Origin: Candidatus Saccharimonadota bacterium
GTDB lineage: Bacteria > Patescibacteriota > Saccharimonadia > Saccharimonadales > Saccharimonadaceae
NCBI GenBank assembly: GCA_049296095.1
Contig: JBAQRV010000001.1
Span: 480,001-512,000 of the forward strand
Direction of reading: 5' to 3'
DNA: 32,000 bases
The notes under the pieces: generated by a model
What the model saw: only the letters and a program-made list of their open reading frames with translations
What the model was told of the DNA's origin: nothing
Databases searched by the model: none
Program-made: the position numbers and the translations under genes
Shown: piece by piece, positions 16,399 through 22,503 of the stretch
Layout: every line of letters starts with the position of its first letter
Position numbering within the stretch: position 1 is the first letter of the stretch

Positions 16399-16830
16399 TT
16401 AATCTTGTACGGCGTCACGCACTTGATCTATTGATATATTGCTTCTAAGTGTTGCGGGGTCACCATAGTGCCTTGAACGTTTTATCTTTCCATTTTCAAT
16501 TTGACACACTAAAACATAGGGCCAAACTCGTTTAGAATCCTTAGTTGGTTCGACTTCAGCAAGTTCAACGAATACAGTTTGCGTCCTTTCATTGGCAGCG
16601 ACATTCCAGACATGAAATTCACGGCCTTCAAGTGCATATGCATCCTCAAGACCAACCGAAATATCTCCTCCGGCGAAAACCGGGAAAACTTTGTCTTCAG
16701 AGATAATCATACCTCTTTGCTTAAAGTCATCAGTAATTAGACGCTTGCCCTTCTTTACATTATTAGTTCGCTCGGCTTCGAATGAGTCGGTAACAATTTT
16801 GATGAGGTCATCTTGCGAGTAGTAGTGCAT
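16399..16830 (-). CDS. NTF2-like / SnoaL-like fold protein (143 aa)
   Basis: Size and alpha+beta cone pattern (helical N-terminus, then strands FHVWNVAANERTQTVFVEL, WPYVLVCQIENGKI). ATG 16830 is chosen because TGGTATACT lies 6 nt upstream. Confidence 0.6.
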   Translation of the reverse strand: MHYYSQDDLIKIVTDSFEAERTNNVKKGKRLITDDFKQRGMIISEDKVFPVFAGGDISVGLEDAYALEGREFHVWNVAANERTQTVFVELAEVEPTKDSKRVWPYVLVCQIENGKIKRSRHYGDPATLRSNISIDQVRDAVQD

Positions 16831-16836
16831 GCCACT

Positions 16837-16845
16837 AGTATACCA
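16837..16845 (-). promoter_or_regulatory. extended -10 element (TGGTATACT), leaderless-type promoter for the NTF2-like gene
   Basis: The minus strand reads TGGTATACT-AGTGGC-ATG (ATG at 16830). Confidence 0.4.
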
Positions 16846-16928
16846 AATCCTACACACACTACTTGACAAGTATTATATAGGTCTGTTTAATAGTACTAAA
16901 CTAAGCCCTAGGTTAATAAGGACTCCGC

Positions 16929-17117
16929 ATGCGAGAACGAACAACTGATCAGATCATTCGACAAAGCGCCGACCCAGAAGCACTTCTTGATGCTCTAAAA
17001 GAGGCTGATGATACAGACCTCATCGACACCCTCAAGCCTGAAATACGACGAGAGGTAGAAGAATCTGTTCGCGTCCGTTCAATGGGAAGTCGTGGCCTCG
17101 GCGGCTTTTCTCTCTAA
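16929..17117 (+). CDS. small acidic protein (62 aa) with Gly-rich C-terminus
   Basis: ATG is preceded by TAAGGA with a 6-nt spacer. A possible TTGACA (16863-16868) lies upstream. Sequence: MRERTTDQIIRQSADPEALLDALKEADDTDLIDTLKPEIRREVEESVRVRSMGSRGLGGFSL. Native-looking codon usage. Confidence 0.45.
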   Translation: MRERTTDQIIRQSADPEALLDALKEADDTDLIDTLKPEIRREVEESVRVRSMGSRGLGGFSL

Positions 17118-17118
17118 T

Positions 17119-17919
17119 CTATTGATTATGTTCTGTGTAGGTATAGTATGATTCGTTTGCTTTCATGGCAAGGCGAGCTAAACTTGCCGTACGACCAGAA
17201 ACAAATTGATGAGCGTATACCCAAGCGACATATCCATCTGGGAATTGGTCGACCTCGAGGTGAGTTGATGGCGCGGACGCCACTATCACCTGTCTTAGGC
17301 CTCCGATCACAGGCGCCTGTTCAATGAGTAAAAGACGCCGACGAAGCTCAGCAATGTCCCACAAGCCTAATTTTTGTCCTTGTTCCTTTTCCCACACACT
17401 TGCAGCCCACGACTGGGTGGATTCAACGAAAGCTTTTTCAGCAGCCACCCCTTTGTCTTCGTGAAAGGATGCACCGAGTACTATATACGGGTACGTTTGG
17501 GCATTTTCCAAAATAGAAACAGCTGCATACCCATCGCGCATCACCGTTTCGACAAACCCAATTGCAAAATGATAATCAGATGGTACATCATATTTCTCAT
17601 GCATTGCTGCGATGTCCGCATCGGAAGCCTTCCCCAATATCGGGCGGTCAAACGCCCACCAAGCAGCTACAGATATTCGCTCGTTAGCCTCTCTTTCGGC
17701 ATTTTCGATGGCCGCATCTCTCTCGACATGCGCCGCCGATGAAACAAAGCCCGATTCTCGATCAACTGAGGCTTGAATCTCTAACGCTTCCATTAGAGTT
17801 TTGAGTCTTATTTGATCTTCATTGTCACCCGTAGCAGCGGGGCGAAAGGTATCACTCTCGGCAAGCTTCACTGTCTTTAGTGAAGGAAACGGTGTTTTAA
17901 TTTCGATAAATGTATTCAT
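17119..17919 (-). CDS. hypothetical protein (266 aa) with motif-level resemblance to the YcaO superfamily
   Basis: Long clean ORF of native composition. Motifs DAAIENAER (aa 68-76), FVETVMRD (122-129) and GASFHEDKGVAAEKAFVESTQ (149-169) occur in the order I recall for the YcaO ATP/Mg-binding motifs. The coding call is solid; the function is speculative. Confidence 0.7.
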   Translation of the reverse strand: MNTFIEIKTPFPSLKTVKLAESDTFRPAATGDNEDQIRLKTLMEALEIQASVDRESGFVSSAAHVERDAAIENAEREANERISVAAWWAFDRPILGKASDADIAAMHEKYDVPSDYHFAIGFVETVMRDGYAAVSILENAQTYPYIVLGASFHEDKGVAAEKAFVESTQSWAASVWEKEQGQKLGLWDIAELRRRLLLIEQAPVIGGLRQVIVASAPSTHLEVDQFPDGYVAWVYAHQFVSGRTASLARLAMKANESYYTYTEHNQ

Positions 17920-17965: not shown

Positions 17966-17981
17966 TGGTGCGGCTGTCTTG

Positions 17982-18479
17982 CTAGACGGCCACGGCGACG
18001 CGCGACTTGGCGAACGACGACTGCCAGGCCATGGTGGCCATGACGGCCTCCGTGGCGGCGACGAAGTTGTCCGTCAGCGCCGACTGCTCCCAGAGCTTGT
18101 CCTGGACGCTGCCGTCCTCGCCGAGGAGCTCGAGCTCCATGCGCGCCGTGCTGACCGACGTGGCCGCGGCGGCGAGGTTCTCGAGCTGGGCGCCGAAGTC
18201 GACGTCGGTGCCGCCGAGCTGCTCGTAGAGCGAGGCGACGGAGCCGATCTTGGACTTGGCGTCCTCGAAGTAGTCCTCGCCACGCTTCAGAAGCGCGATG
18301 GCGTCGTCGAGGCTGCCCTCAGCGAGAACCGCCATCTCGATCTTGGCGTGAGCACCGAAGTAGCACTCCGTGCCGGTGAACATGACCTGACAGAACTCCG
18401 CCAGGTCGGTGACGTACGCCTCACGGACGCCCGGCATCGGCCGATCAGTGAGAGGCGGGGGGCAGTTCTTTCCACCCAT
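17982..18479 (-). CDS. hypothetical protein (165 aa) encoded by a high-GC cassette, probably of foreign origin
   Basis: ATG 18479 has GGAGG 8 nt upstream. By my full hand translation, 152 of 165 codons end in G or C. TAG stop. Sequence MGGKNCPPPLTDRPMPGVREAYVTDLAEFCQVMFTGTECYFGAHAKIEMAVLAEG... looks mostly helical. No family recognised. Confidence 0.75.
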   Translation of the reverse strand: MGGKNCPPPLTDRPMPGVREAYVTDLAEFCQVMFTGTECYFGAHAKIEMAVLAEGSLDDAIALLKRGEDYFEDAKSKIGSVASLYEQLGGTDVDFGAQLENLAAAATSVSTARMELELLGEDGSVQDKLWEQSALTDNFVAATEAVMATMAWQSSFAKSRVAVAV

Positions 18480-18511
18480 GATGGTGACCTCCAAAGGTCT
18501 CGCGTGTTTTT

Positions 18512-18538
18512 TTAACAGGACGAAGTCCGCCCTGTTAA
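18512..18538. other. imperfect hairpin at the upstream edge of the high-GC cassette
   Basis: The plus strand reads TTAACAGGAC-GAAGT-CCGCCCTGTTAA, preceded by T7. It lies between the candidate promoter and the SD of the 165-aa gene. On the minus strand it is followed by A7, so it is not a canonical terminator for the ABC-F gene. Confidence 0.35.
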
Positions 18539-18543
18539 GTTTT

Positions 18544-18571
18544 ATAGTAATATATATGGGTGTTTTGTCAA
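18544..18571 (-). promoter_or_regulatory. candidate promoter (TTGACA-16-TACTAT) for the high-GC gene
   Basis: The minus strand has TTGACA at 18571-18566, in AT-rich native-looking sequence just after the ABC-F stop. TACTAT follows with a 16-nt spacer, or TATAAA with a 19-nt spacer. Confidence 0.35.
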
Positions 18572-18576
18572 TGATA

Positions 18577-20190
18577 TTATATGTTGATCTCGTGCGTAAT
18601 ACCCAGCGCTTCTAAGAACTCGCGATCATGAGATACCACCACAACTCCCCCCTCGTATGAAGCAATCGCACTCTCAAGAGCCTCAACGGTCGCAAGATCG
18701 AGATTATTTGTCGGTTCGTCGAGTAGCAAAAGGTTCGCCTTGTTTGCGGCAATGGAAGCCAACAACACCTTTGCTCGTTCACCACCACTAAGGTCCCGAC
18801 CTCTAGTAGTAGAAATAATGTCTTTCTTTAGGTTAAAACGTATCAATAGATTAATAGCTTCATGAACCTCGAGATGAGGTGCCATGTGCTTGATATTATC
18901 AAAGGCCGTACCATCCATTAATGGGAGGCTTTGTTCTTGGTCGATATAGATCGGATGAGCTTCCTTATTAATGGCGATTCCTCCTAATATCTCTCCGGCG
19001 CTCTTGCCAACAATCGCCCGGAGCAATGAAGACTTCCCTATACCATTCGGTCCGTTGAGTGCATACCGCTCACCCGATCGAATACTTAGCGATAGAGGGC
19101 CAGCTGTGAAGCCGTCTAGATACGTCACTGTAAGTTCATTGACGGTGAGTAGGTTTAGCTTCTTTGCATCAGCTTCTTTAAACAAGAATTTGAGTGAAAC
19201 TTCTTCCTCGGGGCGTTCTGGCTCCTCAAGTTGTCCCGCGCGACTCTCGATACTCTGCGCAGCACGAGCAAGGCCGCTCGCCGCCTTTTCTGCCCGAAAG
19301 TTCGCTGTTGACTTGTCATTATCTGGTGCTTTTCGCCTACCCGAAGAGGCTCCGTTGGCACGAATGCTGGCGTCACGAGCAACTTTCTTTAAGCGCTTCT
19401 TTTCAGTCTCGTATTGATCATATCGTTTTACGACCGCAGCGCGATCCGCCTGACGGCTCTCCATATATTCGTCGTAGCCTAGCCCATACTGCTCAACACC
19501 CCTATCTTCACCCAGTAACTCGACAATGCGGTTAGTAGCGTTGCGCAGGAAACGACGATCGTGAGAAACCATCACAAATGCGCCCTTAGCTGTATCGATG
19601 AACCCTTCGAGAGCCTCAATACCCTTGCTGTCTAGATTATTCGTCGGTTCATCGAGCAAGACAACATCTTGTTGCGAGGCGAAGATTCCCGCTAGGGCAA
19701 TTCGAGTTCGCTGACCTCCCGAGAAGTGCTTGAGAGGACTAGTAACATCAATACCCTCCATATCAGCCGCTGCGAGAGCCTTCTCTATTTTGCTTTCAAA
19801 TCCTGGCACATCGTACTTCTCGTATTTTTCGAGGGCGTCAGCATAAAAGGCGAGCACTGTATCGCTCGTACTGTCTTGGAGCATTCGACAAGCCTCGTCA
19901 AAATCTTCACGGGCCTGTTGGACCCCAGTCACTGATTCAAGGAAATCGTAGACAGGTTTGTCGAGCCAGCCCCCAAGATCTTGAGGCATAAGTCCCACTT
20001 CGGTATCATTCCCGACTATCTCTCCCTGAGTAGGCTCAAGATCACCTGAAAGCAAATGGAGCAAGGTTGTCTTTCCGACGCCGTTTTTGCCTACCAACCC
20101 TAGCCGATCGCCCTTGTTAATGGCAAAAGAAACGTTACGAAAGACCTCATGGCCCGCAGTTTCATATCCAATATTTTTTACGCTCAACAT
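18577..20190 (-). CDS. ABC-F family ATPase (translation-associated, no membrane domain)
   Basis: Two ABC cassettes with Walker A GKNGVGKTT and GPNGIGKSS and signatures LSGGQRTR and LSGGERAK. A charged Arg/Lys/Glu-rich inter-domain linker. No TM segments. Confidence 0.9.
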   Translation of the reverse strand: MLSVKNIGYETAGHEVFRNVSFAINKGDRLGLVGKNGVGKTTLLHLLSGDLEPTQGEIVGNDTEVGLMPQDLGGWLDKPVYDFLESVTGVQQAREDFDEACRMLQDSTSDTVLAFYADALEKYEKYDVPGFESKIEKALAAADMEGIDVTSPLKHFSGGQRTRIALAGIFASQQDVVLLDEPTNNLDSKGIEALEGFIDTAKGAFVMVSHDRRFLRNATNRIVELLGEDRGVEQYGLGYDEYMESRQADRAAVVKRYDQYETEKKRLKKVARDASIRANGASSGRRKAPDNDKSTANFRAEKAASGLARAAQSIESRAGQLEEPERPEEEVSLKFLFKEADAKKLNLLTVNELTVTYLDGFTAGPLSLSIRSGERYALNGPNGIGKSSLLRAIVGKSAGEILGGIAINKEAHPIYIDQEQSLPLMDGTAFDNIKHMAPHLEVHEAINLLIRFNLKKDIISTTRGRDLSGGERAKVLLASIAANKANLLLLDEPTNNLDLATVEALESAIASYEGGVVVVSHDREFLEALGITHEINI

Positions 20191-20327: not shown

Positions 20328-20417
20328 TGGCGGAGAGAACGAGATTCGAACTCGTGGTAACATTGCTGCCACACACGCTTTCCAAGCGTGCGCCTTCAAC
20401 CACTCGGCCACCTCTCC
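20328..20417 (-). tRNA. tRNA-Ser (anticodon GGA), CCA encoded
   Basis: The minus strand reads GGAGAGGTGGCCGAGTGGTTGAAGGCGCACGCTTGGAAAGCGTGTGTGGCAGCAATGTTACCACGAGTTCGAATCTCGTTCTCTCCGCCA. It has a 7-bp acceptor stem, the anticodon stem CACGC/GCGTG with loop TTGGAAA, a long variable arm, and the T-loop TTCGAAT. Confidence 0.93.
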
Positions 20418-20500
20418 GTACAGGCACTTAGTATACTATTGTCATTTCCACGCCACAAATACAGTTGCCCCGGCGCGTACAGACTCGCATAATAAAGACA

Positions 20501-21271
20501 ATGCCAAAGACAAAAACCCCACCAGTTATTGTTCTCGCCGATCTTAAAAAGCGGTTCGGCATCGGTGACGCCGAGCACTTCGCTATAGACGGTATCAACC
20601 TCACTATTAAGAGGGGTGAATTCATCGCCATTATGGGTCCCAGTGGTTGTGGTAAAACAACCTTACTTAATATCTTGGGGCTCCTCGATAATGATGTCGA
20701 GGGTGAATACGAACTCGATGGCCGCCGCGTCTCGACGCTCAGTTCACGCAAACAAGCACGTATTCGCAGTCAGCAAATTGGCTTTGTCTTTCAGAGCTTT
20801 AATCTTGTGAATCGACTCAACGTTATCGAGAACGTCGCCCTACCACTCACCTACAAAGGACTTCCTCGTCTCGCCCGACTCAAGCAGGCTAGTAACATAC
20901 TTCAGAATTTCCACCTCAGTGAACGTGAGTATTACATGCCCCACCAACTGTCCGGTGGACAAACCCAACGCGTGGCCATTGCGCGAGCACTCGTCAATGA
21001 ACCGTCAATTATTCTCGCTGATGAGCCGACCGGCAACCTCGACTCGCACGCTAGTCATATTATTATGGAGGAATTATCTGACCTCCATAAACGCGGCAAC
21101 ACTATCATTATGGTGACGCACAATCCCCGACTGACTACCTATGCCAGTCGCGTCATCACTATGCTTGATGGACAAATCGATACCGATACCCAGACACCGA
21201 CACCAAAATCCAAACAACCCTCAAAGCGGGCTCTCGGCGCCAAACGTAAAAAAGCAAAGGCCAAACCATAA
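20501..21271 (+). CDS. ABC transporter ATP-binding protein (MacB/LolD/FtsE-like)
   Basis: Walker [10 protein letters not shown], signature LSGGQTQR, Walker [15 protein letters not shown] 20501 is preferred, with CATAAT 7 nt upstream. Lys-rich C-terminal tail. TAATG overlap with the permease gene. Confidence 0.9.
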
Positions 21272-22503
21272 TGCGCCTTCTCGTTATTAATCATCTCCAA
21301 AATGCCCGCCAATCGCTGCGAAGTAATCGAATGCGCAGCGGTCTGACCATGCTCGGCATTACGATTGGTGTTGCGAGCATTACAACAATCTTAGCCCTCA
21401 GCGGTGGTGCCAGCAAAATCGTCAGTGATCAGGTCGACGCCCTCGGCGGTAATATTGCCGTTATTCGTCCCGGCCTGATATCAGACAGTCCATTCGAGGA
21501 TCTGTCTCAACTCCCCGCTCAGCAAAACTTTTCAGCCAGTACAATTACCGAAACTGACCTGGCCTACATTCAGCAAGTTCCTCACGTCGCGGCGGCAGCA
21601 CCACTCATGATTCTGACCGGTGCAATCAAAGCCGCCAATACTGCACCCGCCAACTCAACCATTATTGCAACCACGCCCGAACTTGCGACGATTAATAATC
21701 TCGAGATTCGTACTGGTCAATTCCTCGACCCGAGGCTCAATCCAAATACTGCCGTCATAGGTCCACAGCTCTCCGTCGATATCTTTGGTACCGAAGAATC
21801 GATCGGCAAGACCATGAACATCCGCGGCCAGCAATTCACCGTCATTGGCATCCTAAAACGCACCAACAACCCGATCAACTACAATGGCGTCGATTTCGAT
21901 AAGTCGGTCATCATTAATATCGACAGTGGCCGCGTCATGAACCAGGGCATCCTCCAAATCCAACAAATCAACATTCAAAGTGATTCAGTCGCGAGTCTTG
22001 ACCAGGTCATTATCGATATTAACAAAACTCTTTTAAAAACTCATTTAGGCGAAGTGGATTTCACCGTTCTTTCAGGCGAACAGATCGCTCAACCGACTAA
22101 TCGTCTTTTCTACGCCATTGCTGGCGCCACTGCAGCTATTGCGGCAATCTCACTATTCGTTGGTGGGATTGGGATTATGAATATCATGCTCGTCAGCGTC
22201 GCTGAACGAACTCGCGAGATCGGCATTCGTAAAGCCCTGGGAGCTAGCAACGGTGACATTGTCGCTCAGTTCCTGATAGAGTCGCTCGCTCTCAGTATCG
22301 GTGGTGGTATTGTCGGCTACGTCCTCGGGTATCTGTTAGCCTTCGGGATCAGCACCTTCCTGACGTTCGACCCGATCTTTACTTGGGAAATCGCCGCTAT
22401 ATCGATGGGGGTCTCACTCATTATAGGAACCCTGTTCGGACTCTATCCTGCAATTCGCGCAGCCAGGAAAGACCCTATCTCTGCACTTCGCCAATACGAT
22501 TAA
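21271..22503 (+). CDS. ABC transporter permease, MacB/FtsX family
   Basis: N-terminal TM, a large periplasmic-type domain, and a C-terminal FtsX domain (SVAERTREIGIRKALGAS plus three hydrophobic spans). Translationally coupled to the ATPase gene. Confidence 0.9.
   Translation: MRLLVINHLQNARQSLRSNRMRSGLTMLGITIGVASITTILALSGGASKIVSDQVDALGGNIAVIRPGLISDSPFEDLSQLPAQQNFSASTITETDLAYIQQVPHVAAAAPLMILTGAIKAANTAPANSTIIATTPELATINNLEIRTGQFLDPRLNPNTAVIGPQLSVDIFGTEESIGKTMNIRGQQFTVIGILKRTNNPINYNGVDFDKSVIINIDSGRVMNQGILQIQQINIQSDSVASLDQVIIDINKTLLKTHLGEVDFTVLSGEQIAQPTNRLFYAIAGATAAIAAISLFVGGIGIMNIMLVSVAERTREIGIRKALGASNGDIVAQFLIESLALSIGGGIVGYVLGYLLAFGISTFLTFDPIFTWEIAAISMGVSLIIGTLFGLYPAIRAARKDPISALRQYD

Follow-up and report, generated by a model that had tools for sequence, protein, structure and literature searches.

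Introduction

Peptide backbones acquire azoline, thioamide and amidine modifications mainly through enzymes of the YcaO superfamily, which use ATP to phosphorylate, and so to activate, a backbone amide. Known azoline-forming members require a PxPxP tail and a partner that is E1-like or carries a recognition element (RRE) for peptides that are made by the ribosome and modified after translation (RiPPs). Where a YcaO is paired with TfuA, sulfur delivery has been proposed as the role of TfuA. Activation by ATP follows nucleophilic attack, and the nucleophile decides whether an azoline, a thioamide or an amidine is formed (PMC13063428). Here we report on two adjacent genes in a 32,000-nucleotide stretch of DNA from a Candidatus Saccharimonadota bacterium (assembly GCA_049296095.1, contig JBAQRV010000001.1, positions 480,001 to 512,000), which is termed ‘the window’ and whose own numbering is used throughout. 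One gene encodes a protein of 266 amino acids (aa), called mini-YcaO herein, and the other encodes its 165-aa ‘partner’. The mini-YcaO is a minimal YcaO domain, confined so far to one lineage, that comes with a new type of partner.

Several described systems bear comparison with this pair. The cyclodehydratases that produce thiazole/oxazole-modified microcins and linear azol(in)e-containing peptides (TOMM/LAP enzymes, such as SagD, McbD, LynD/MusD and BalhD) act on leader-core peptides. Other YcaO enzymes modify intact proteins such as McrA and uL16 (PMC13063428). Among these thioamide-forming enzymes are M. kandleri YcaO (structure 6CI7) and MJ1094 (6PE3), with a glycine of McrA as the site, and E. 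coli YcaO, which modifies uL16; their substrates are entire proteins, and they need no E1 partner (PMC13063428). The bottromycin precursor offers a third layout, in which an N-terminal core is joined to a C-terminal follower (PMC4979651). Within the candidate phyla radiation (CPR), the YcaO clusters that have been reported come from other phyla and are of the canonical LAP type (PMC7298704), and the searchable literature on YcaO in Saccharibacteria or Patescibacteria gave no account of the family described here.

A minimal YcaO domain

The mini-YcaO gene occupies positions 17119..17919 on the minus strand and begins with ATG. An earlier reading of the window (the original prediction) had described this open reading frame (ORF) correctly and proposed that it encodes a minimised, divergent YcaO-type enzyme, a proposal borne out by profile-profile alignment, by Pfam matches throughout the family and by structure comparison. 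Membership of the YcaO superfamily is established at the family level, and it rests on evidence of that kind because the single sequence scores under the Pfam threshold. The window protein alone matches Pfam YcaO (PF02624) weakly, at 15.3 bits (E 0.013) against a gathering threshold of 25.7 bits. Its match to TIGR03604 (SagD) is also weak (14.2 bits, E 0.015, residues 62-173 covered) and does not reach the cut-off of 219 bits. Both matches span about residues 62-174. A search of the PDB with the single sequence returned no match, and family profiles were needed.

At the family level the signal is strong. Among 35 aligned homologues, which range from 25 to 73% identity to the window protein, 32 match PF02624 at E <= 0.1, with a best E-value of 3.9e-10. 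Alignment of the family profile with a canonical SagD-like YcaO profile by hhalign gives 99.3% probability (E 2.4e-20) and places motifs 1-3 in register. The AlphaFold2 model of the protein, which has a predicted local distance difference test score (pLDDT) of 87.4 and a predicted template modelling score of 0.89, fits the YcaO alpha/beta fold, of which a central nucleotide-binding cavity is part. When this model was compared with the PDB by Foldseek, ranks 1-20 were all YcaO proteins (E 8.5e-8 to 2e-3), with noise below. The best E-value belongs to McbD (8.5e-8), in keeping with a fold shared with the TOMM/LAP enzymes, and the highest TM-score (0.67-0.68) to the thioamide-forming M. kandleri YcaO; E. 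coli YcaO is also among the matches.

An exhaustive hidden Markov model (HMM) search of 1.84 billion cluster representatives defines the family as approximately 45 clusters (clustering at 50% identity). With few exceptions, full-length members measure 250-290 aa, and the next-ranked matches are canonical YcaOs of 330-420 aa. A protein identical to that of the window, labelled hypothetical, is encoded by a metagenome-assembled genome of Candidatus Microsaccharimonas, which belongs to the Saccharimonadaceae in the phylum Saccharimonadota.

Active-site motifs and lost segments

Three YcaO-like motifs in the canonical order had been claimed for this protein, represented by the strings DAAIENAER (aa 68-76), FVETVMRD (aa 122-129) and GASFHEDKGVAAEKAFVESTQ (aa 149-169). 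The strings do stand at these residues, but only the late motif was correctly identified: the early one is offset by five residues, the middle one is spurious and the true motif 1 had not been listed.

Motif 1 (17767..17793, minus strand; aa 43-51, MEALEIQAS) is defined by the homologue alignment, by hhalign and by its place on helix 34-51 of the model. It reads M43-E44-A-L-E47-I..A50-S51, and M43, E44 and E47 are invariant in the 35 sequences. In the hhalign alignment it pairs with the canonical (F/A)EAxER(Y), as in ‘FEAIERY’, with Ile in place of the Arg of ExxER. Motif 2 (17656..17736, minus strand; aa 62-88, AAH...REANERISVAAWW) lies on helix 67-89 and is supported by the alignment, by hhalign and by HMM alignments to MusD (7U58) and MJ1094 (6PE3), in which it falls on their ExxERD and the Trp that comes next. 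Its E77, E80, W87 and W88 are invariant, A62, A63, H64 and R81 are nearly so, and Ile, Val or Leu replaces the canonical Asp. The invariant ExxER is E77-A-N-E80-R81, which is canonical motif 2; the ExxER that had been proposed at aa 72-76 consists of residues (E72, E75 and R76) that are not conserved. Motif 3 (17407..17475, minus strand; aa 149-171, GASFHEDKGVAAEKAFVESTQSW) is supported by the alignment and hhalign and lies on helix 156-179. The late motif that had been recognized as G149...E166..Q169-S170 is this canonical motif 3, with G149, E166 and S170 invariant and Q169 and W171 nearly so; among closer homologues Q169 is invariant as well.

FVETVMRD (17533..17556, minus strand) was rejected as a middle motif. 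Its columns are variable among homologues, it has no canonical counterpart and it falls in the region of a model beta-strand (117-123), so it is a chance match that corresponds to no YcaO motif, and a remark that Met replaces the second Glu in it is moot. G121, immediately before this string, is conserved among closer homologues only.

The five Mg/ATP-type glutamates (E44, E47, E77, E80 and E166) are thus invariant down to 25% identity, and in the hhalign alignment E44/E47, E77/E80/R81 and E166 coincide with the glutamates of the canonical motifs. Their canonical order is also that of the three ATP/Mg motifs in TOMM/LAP enzymes. The three helices that carry the invariant residues of the mini-YcaO are long, and this is the arrangement that the ATP coordination sphere of McbD is described as having (PMC6395948). 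Because the five glutamates persist even at 25% identity, the mini-YcaO is, as judged from its sequence, probably catalytically competent and not a scaffold.

The opposite possibility, that the protein is a degenerate remnant that serves only in binding or as a scaffold, draws on the truncation of the domain, the Arg-to-Ile change in motif 1, the loss of the ExxERD Asp and of the PxPxP tail, and the sub-threshold Pfam score of the single sequence. An inactive scaffold had also been entertained in the original prediction. We consider this very unlikely, since R81, H64 and Q169/S170 are, like the five Mg-coordinating glutamates, invariant or nearly so down to the most distant homologues, which is the pattern of an active site under selection.

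The protein is indeed 100-150 residues shorter than typical YcaO enzymes, as had been pointed out. Relative to canonical YcaOs it lacks approximately 35 residues at the N-terminus, the Pro-rich PxPxP tail and, between motifs 1 and 2, a segment of approximately 80 columns in the alignment. In place of this tail (PHPF-type in canonical relatives; a role of the C-terminal Pro has been described for McbD, PMC6395948) the family ends in (V/I)(F/Y)TxHNx, with a consensus of VFTxHNx at 17122..17142 on the minus strand. T262 is nearly invariant in the 35 sequences and N265 is invariant in closer homologues.

Certain short YcaO-like proteins of 331 aa (P0050 and P0057) likewise have no counterpart of the stretch that canonical YcaOs carry between motifs 1 and 2, and they are the nearest matches outside the family that also cover the motif 1 region. 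They are 65 residues longer than the mini-YcaO and, at 38-43 bits, score above the Pfam YcaO threshold. On the single contig inspected (L021, 46-2420), the P0050 gene overlaps a downstream histidine kinase gene by 4 nucleotides, a context unlike that of the pair in Saccharibacteria, and no MGGxNC partner of the kind described below was seen near P0050 on this short contig.

A partner protein with an invariant N-terminus

To the mini-YcaO gene of the window we added 54 related loci, gathered by exact-protein look-ups and by pattern scans of genome and metagenome collections. The scans used narrower alignments, the 35-sequence alignment being too diverse. Those loci whose records name an organism are all from Saccharibacteria, including oral TM7 HOT-348. 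Directly upstream of the mini-YcaO gene in the window lies the partner gene (17982..18479, minus strand). In every locus with enough upstream sequence, amounting to 48 loci and one fusion, a same-strand partner precedes the mini-YcaO gene. Partners are 159-180 aa long and their genes stand 12-113 nucleotides from the mini-YcaO gene, and the pairing holds down to 26-33% YcaO identity.

The first six codons of the partner (18462..18479, minus strand) read M-G-G-K-N-C and form a candidate modification site. All 31 distinct full-length partners start M-G-G-(I/K/V)-N-C; one truncated copy has Gln at position 4. Positions 7-9 are Pro or Gly and are followed by a variable linker. M1, G2, G3, N5 and C6 remain invariant while the rest of the protein falls to approximately 29% identity or, in one divergent locus (L022), becomes barely alignable. 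The codons for these invariant residues vary synonymously (GGT/GGC/GGA/GGG, AAC/AAT and TGC/TGT), which argues that selection acts on the MGGxNC peptide itself. This synonymous variation, together with a Shine-Dalgarno sequence at a fixed distance in every locus, also indicates that the MGGxNC ATG is the true start codon. In the window the Shine-Dalgarno sequence is GGAGGT (18487..18492, minus strand), 7 nucleotides upstream of the partner ATG; all loci carry GGAGG or a near variant (e.g. AAAGGG or GAGAGG) 6-8 nucleotides before this codon.

The AlphaFold2 model of the partner (pLDDT 87.8) is a four-helix bundle (helices 16-53, 58-87, 95-117 and 125-162). The N-terminal tail in front of it is disordered, with no secondary structure at residues 1-15 and pLDDT values below 50 at residues 1-9. 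No relatives of the partner were found in Pfam or PADLOC, and searches of the PDB by sequence profile and by Foldseek turned up nothing beyond helical bundles of a generic kind (best Foldseek E 0.055).

Public annotations hide the MGGxNC start because they choose either an internal Met or an antisense ORF. The NCBI annotation begins at an internal Met (151 aa) and leaves out the MGGxNC codons, and in two contigs (L009/L010) gene callers chose an antisense ORF over the partner. The window itself has a 178-aa antisense ORF (17979-18515, plus strand) over the partner region (17982-18494, minus strand). The G+C content of the partner gene is approximately 58%, against approximately 47% for the window.

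Two loci depart from the usual layout. On one metagenome contig (L052, approximately 1640-2100), the first approximately 78 residues of the partner (MGGINC...) are fused in frame to the mini-YcaO from approximately residue 66, an arrangement that represents either a deletion variant or an assembly chimera. In L004 (2263-2640; P0004 lineage), the partner ORF ends at 125 aa and leaves a gap of 180 nucleotides before the YcaO gene, for which a frameshift, a pseudogene or a sequencing error is a possible explanation.

Proposed substrate and chemistry

The MGGxNC protein, whose Cys comes right after an Asn, is the only strictly co-conserved element, and its N-terminal tail is the best-supported candidate substrate. 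The apparently co-transcribed partner, encoded close by, carries an invariant Cys6 within a disordered tail. We infer partner binding, the use of the tail as substrate and the type of chemistry. In the scheme that we propose, the helical bundle would dock on the mini-YcaO and serve as a built-in follower or recognition domain, replacing the missing E1-like/RRE partner, and the flexible tail would enter the active site. There, the mini-YcaO would use ATP to activate the Asn5-Cys6 amide, and attack by the Cys6 thiol would give a thiazoline (-18 Da) as the most likely product. Alternative chemistry on the same tail would yield a thioamide or, by involving the N-terminal amine, an amidine. That the mini-YcaO modifies the MGGxNC tail, most likely to a thiazoline at Asn5-Cys6, seems to us an even bet.

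A Cys directly after the amide proposed for activation is a feature shared with TOMM/LAP systems, and the best matches of the mini-YcaO by sequence, TIGR03604 in NCBIfam and MusD in the PDB, are like McbD of the azoline type. Several observations weigh against the proposed scheme. The E1-like or RRE partner and the PxPxP tail on which known azoline-forming YcaOs depend are both absent here, as judged from the protein, the window and the related loci. The invariant M43 before E44 parallels ‘CMEAIER’ of M. jannaschii YcaO, and it may correspond to the Met that is preferred in motif 1 of TfuA-associated, thioamide-forming YcaOs (PMC8120280). The best TM-score, too, is to a thioamide-forming YcaO. 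Since the motif 1 Met and this TM-score both point to thioamide YcaOs, a thiazoline is not clearly favoured over a thioamide. Enzyme and partner are both mostly acidic, with a few basic enzymes, and show no obvious electrostatic complementarity. Finally, the invariant Cys, sitting as it does on a flexible arm, could serve in catalysis or as a carrier and not as a substrate.

Comparison with the known systems brings out further differences. The mini-YcaO departs from TOMM/LAP cyclodehydratases in its size and in the missing stretch of approximately 80 columns between motifs 1 and 2, in a motif 1 that reads ExxEI in place of ExxER, in a motif 2 without Asp and in a C-terminus of TxHNx instead of PxPxP. 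It also has no E1-like, Ocin-ThiF or RRE partner and no dehydrogenase; its constant neighbours are only the MGGxNC protein and an ABC-F ATPase, and what it presumably modifies, in place of a leader-core peptide, is the N-terminal site of a folded protein of 165 aa. No E1/ThiF-like, TfuA, dehydrogenase/nitroreductase or protease gene is present in the window or conserved at the related loci.

Thioamide YcaOs resemble the mini-YcaO in their structure, as reflected in the top TM-score to 6CI7, and MJ1094 shares the Met before the first motif 1 Glu. A link with translation, through the ABC-F neighbour of the mini-YcaO, is possibly shared as well. Compared with these enzymes, the mini-YcaO is much smaller (266 aa against 360-590 aa), has no TfuA gene nearby and has a dedicated, apparently co-transcribed partner with an invariant Cys-containing tail. 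TIGR03266 gives no match to the window protein at E <= 1, which leaves it well short of that model's cut-off, and TfuA is absent from the window and the related loci. Thioamide chemistry may nevertheless apply, since some methanogen YcaOs function without TfuA.

The likeness to bottromycin lies in a candidate site that is located at the very N-terminus, behind a Met-Gly start that can be removed and with Cys close by, and in recognition that would use the C-terminal part of the substrate (PMC4979651). The follower of the partner, however, is a folded helical bundle of 150 aa, and its N-terminal peptide is invariant where that of bottromycin is variable. The other tailoring, protease and export genes of the bottromycin system are absent here, and there is no sign of a released small product.

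Promoter and 5ʹ untranslated region

A sigma-70-like promoter (TTGACA-16-TACTAT; 18544..18571, minus strand; 10/12 matches) lies between the stop codon of the ABC-F gene and the partner gene, beginning 6 nucleotides past this stop codon. Most other loci have a TTGACA-type promoter-like motif at the equivalent place. Between the promoter and the partner gene, at the predicted start of the partner/YcaO transcript, the 5ʹ untranslated region contains a stem-loop (18514..18536, minus strand). Because the promoter and the stem-loop precede the partner gene, the pair appears to form a unit of two genes that has a promoter to itself.

Across 11 Saccharibacteria loci, compensatory changes occur in all eight pairs of the stem. 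Paired cells make up 85.9% of the alignment of this element, compared with 68.5% in shuffles (0 of 500 reach 85.9%) and at most 52.5% in slid controls. Rfam gave no match to the stem-loop, which could have a regulatory role or make the mRNA more stable. The Shine-Dalgarno sequence is flanked in several loci by GACC...GGTC, an arrangement that might sequester it.

The ABC-F neighbour and other readings of the pair

Upstream of the pair, on the same strand, lies the gene for an ABC-F ATPase of 537 aa (18577..20190, minus strand). The protein is ribosomal-protection-like, scoring 384 bits with NF000355 against a cut-off of 380. The ABC-F gene adjoins the pair in nearly all loci, across very divergent Saccharibacteria. 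It is inverted on the downstream side in L022/L023 (L022 1925-3553), and it does not adjoin the pair in L004 and L006/L007. This adjacency may reflect either functional coupling or inherited synteny.

One way to read such a neighbourhood is that the partner is an accessory subunit whose Cys6 delivers sulfur, for example as a persulfide, or completes the active site, and that the mini-YcaO thioamidates some other protein, possibly a ribosomal or translation-associated one. E. coli YcaO thioamidates uL16 near the peptidyl transferase centre (PMC13063428), and the ABC-F gene accompanies almost all loci, even after the inversion in L022. The resemblance of M43-E44 to ‘CMEAIER’, the motif 1 Met preferred in TfuA-associated YcaOs (PMC8120280) and the top TM-score to the thioamide-forming M. 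kandleri enzyme fit this reading as well. The partner, however, resembles neither TfuA nor any sulfur-transfer fold, and invariance extends beyond the Cys to the whole of G-G-x-N-C, which suits a recognized substrate better. The pair has a promoter separate from that of the ABC-F gene, which is moreover not adjacent in L004 and L006/L007. We therefore regard an accessory role for the partner as unlikely.

The ABC-F protein takes on another meaning if the pair is a small RiPP-type locus. The precursor would then be the partner, made up of a core at the N-terminus (GGxNC...) and an unusually large folded follower, a short modified peptide would be released, and the ABC-F protein would confer self-immunity against a product that targets translation. 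The core-plus-follower layout has the bottromycin precedent (PMC4979651), the ABC-F protein passes the ribosomal-protection cut-off and YcaO-type LAP clusters occur in other CPR phyla (PMC7298704). However, the putative core would comprise just approximately five residues and would be invariant across very divergent lineages, unlike most RiPP cores, and a follower that is a well-folded bundle of 150 aa has no precedent. Genes for a protease, an exporter or a dehydrogenase are not conserved in the neighbourhood; in the place of a short precursor co-conserved with protease and export genes, the conserved neighbour is a folded 165-aa protein. The ABC-F gene, for its part, has a separate promoter and is sometimes absent. 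On balance, a RiPP locus of this type appears quite improbable.

Modification of the MGGxNC tail by the mini-YcaO thus remains our preferred reading, and a broader proposal built on it can be put forward tentatively, as a possibility to which we assign less than even chances. The pair may be a previously undescribed two-protein system, in which the smallest known YcaO domain places a thiazoline, thioamide or amidine on the GGxNC tail, and the product, be it the whole modified protein or a peptide cut from it, may act with the ABC-F protein on the ribosome. It would be a translation factor or regulator, or else represent a new RiPP-like class in which the core is N-terminal and the follower a folded protein.

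Other genes in the window

On the opposite side of the mini-YcaO gene, and convergent with it, is an ORF of 62 codons (16929..17117, plus strand), which had been noticed as a small adjacent ORF and suggested as a possible peptide substrate. It is a real gene under purifying selection, given that differences from its counterpart in L001 are distributed over the three codon positions as 13:4:37. It is a small clade-specific gene and not part of the conserved module, since of all the loci only the window, L001/L002/L027 and L009/L010 contain it. Its product has an acidic, helical N-terminus and a conserved C-terminus of GS(R/H)G(L/I)GGFS.

That this ORF encodes a precursor peptide modified by the mini-YcaO would agree with its reality as a gene, with its leader-like acidic N-terminus and Gly/Ser-rich C-terminus, and with its position abutting the mini-YcaO gene. 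The peptide contains no Cys, however, the ORF lies on the opposite strand, and it is confined to the three closest lineages, whereas other loci keep the YcaO and the partner without it. We consider it exceedingly improbable as a precursor, and the 62-aa ORF was rejected as the substrate on the ground that it is not co-conserved with the mini-YcaO. The constant partner is the upstream protein of approximately 165 aa with the MGGxNC start, which the original prediction had not noticed.

Beyond the 62-aa ORF lies a gene for a SnoaL/NTF2-like protein (16399..16869, minus strand; weak SnoaL_2 match, E 0.025), with a probable internal ATG start that gives approximately 143 aa. Only in L001, L004/L011 and L009/L010 is the YcaO gene followed downstream by a SnoaL-like homologue; this neighbour is clade-specific and confined to the closest lineages. 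Just upstream of the ABC-F gene is a tRNA-Ser (GGA) gene (20328-20417, minus strand), and divergent from it is a MacB/FtsX-type ABC exporter pair consisting of an ATPase and a permease (20465-22503, plus strand). This exporter is not kept beside the YcaO pair in other loci, and no dedicated exporter gene is conserved beside the pair in the window and the related loci. The remaining genes of the window are housekeeping genes (sigma-70, DnaG, ArgRS, CTP synthase, G6PD, ribonucleotide reductase, PGI, Mur ligase, FemAB and TsaD).

Implications

How YcaO enzymes recognize their substrates, and how small a working YcaO domain can be, are standing questions on which the mini-YcaO may bear. The family would define a catalytic core of approximately 265 aa that operates without the stretch between motifs 1 and 2, without the PxPxP tail and without any known partner, and such a core would be useful for studies of mechanism and for engineering. 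It also comes with a likely genetically encoded substrate, a folded protein in which five of the first six residues are invariant.

Current annotations conceal this system, because the enzyme is listed as hypothetical and the partner is called from an internal Met or replaced by an ORF on the wrong strand. Biosynthetic and modification systems have rarely been reported in Saccharibacteria (PMC7298704), and the mini-YcaO pair would place one in this group, including human oral TM7. Its position beside an ABC-F translation ATPase echoes the modification of uL16 by E. coli YcaO.

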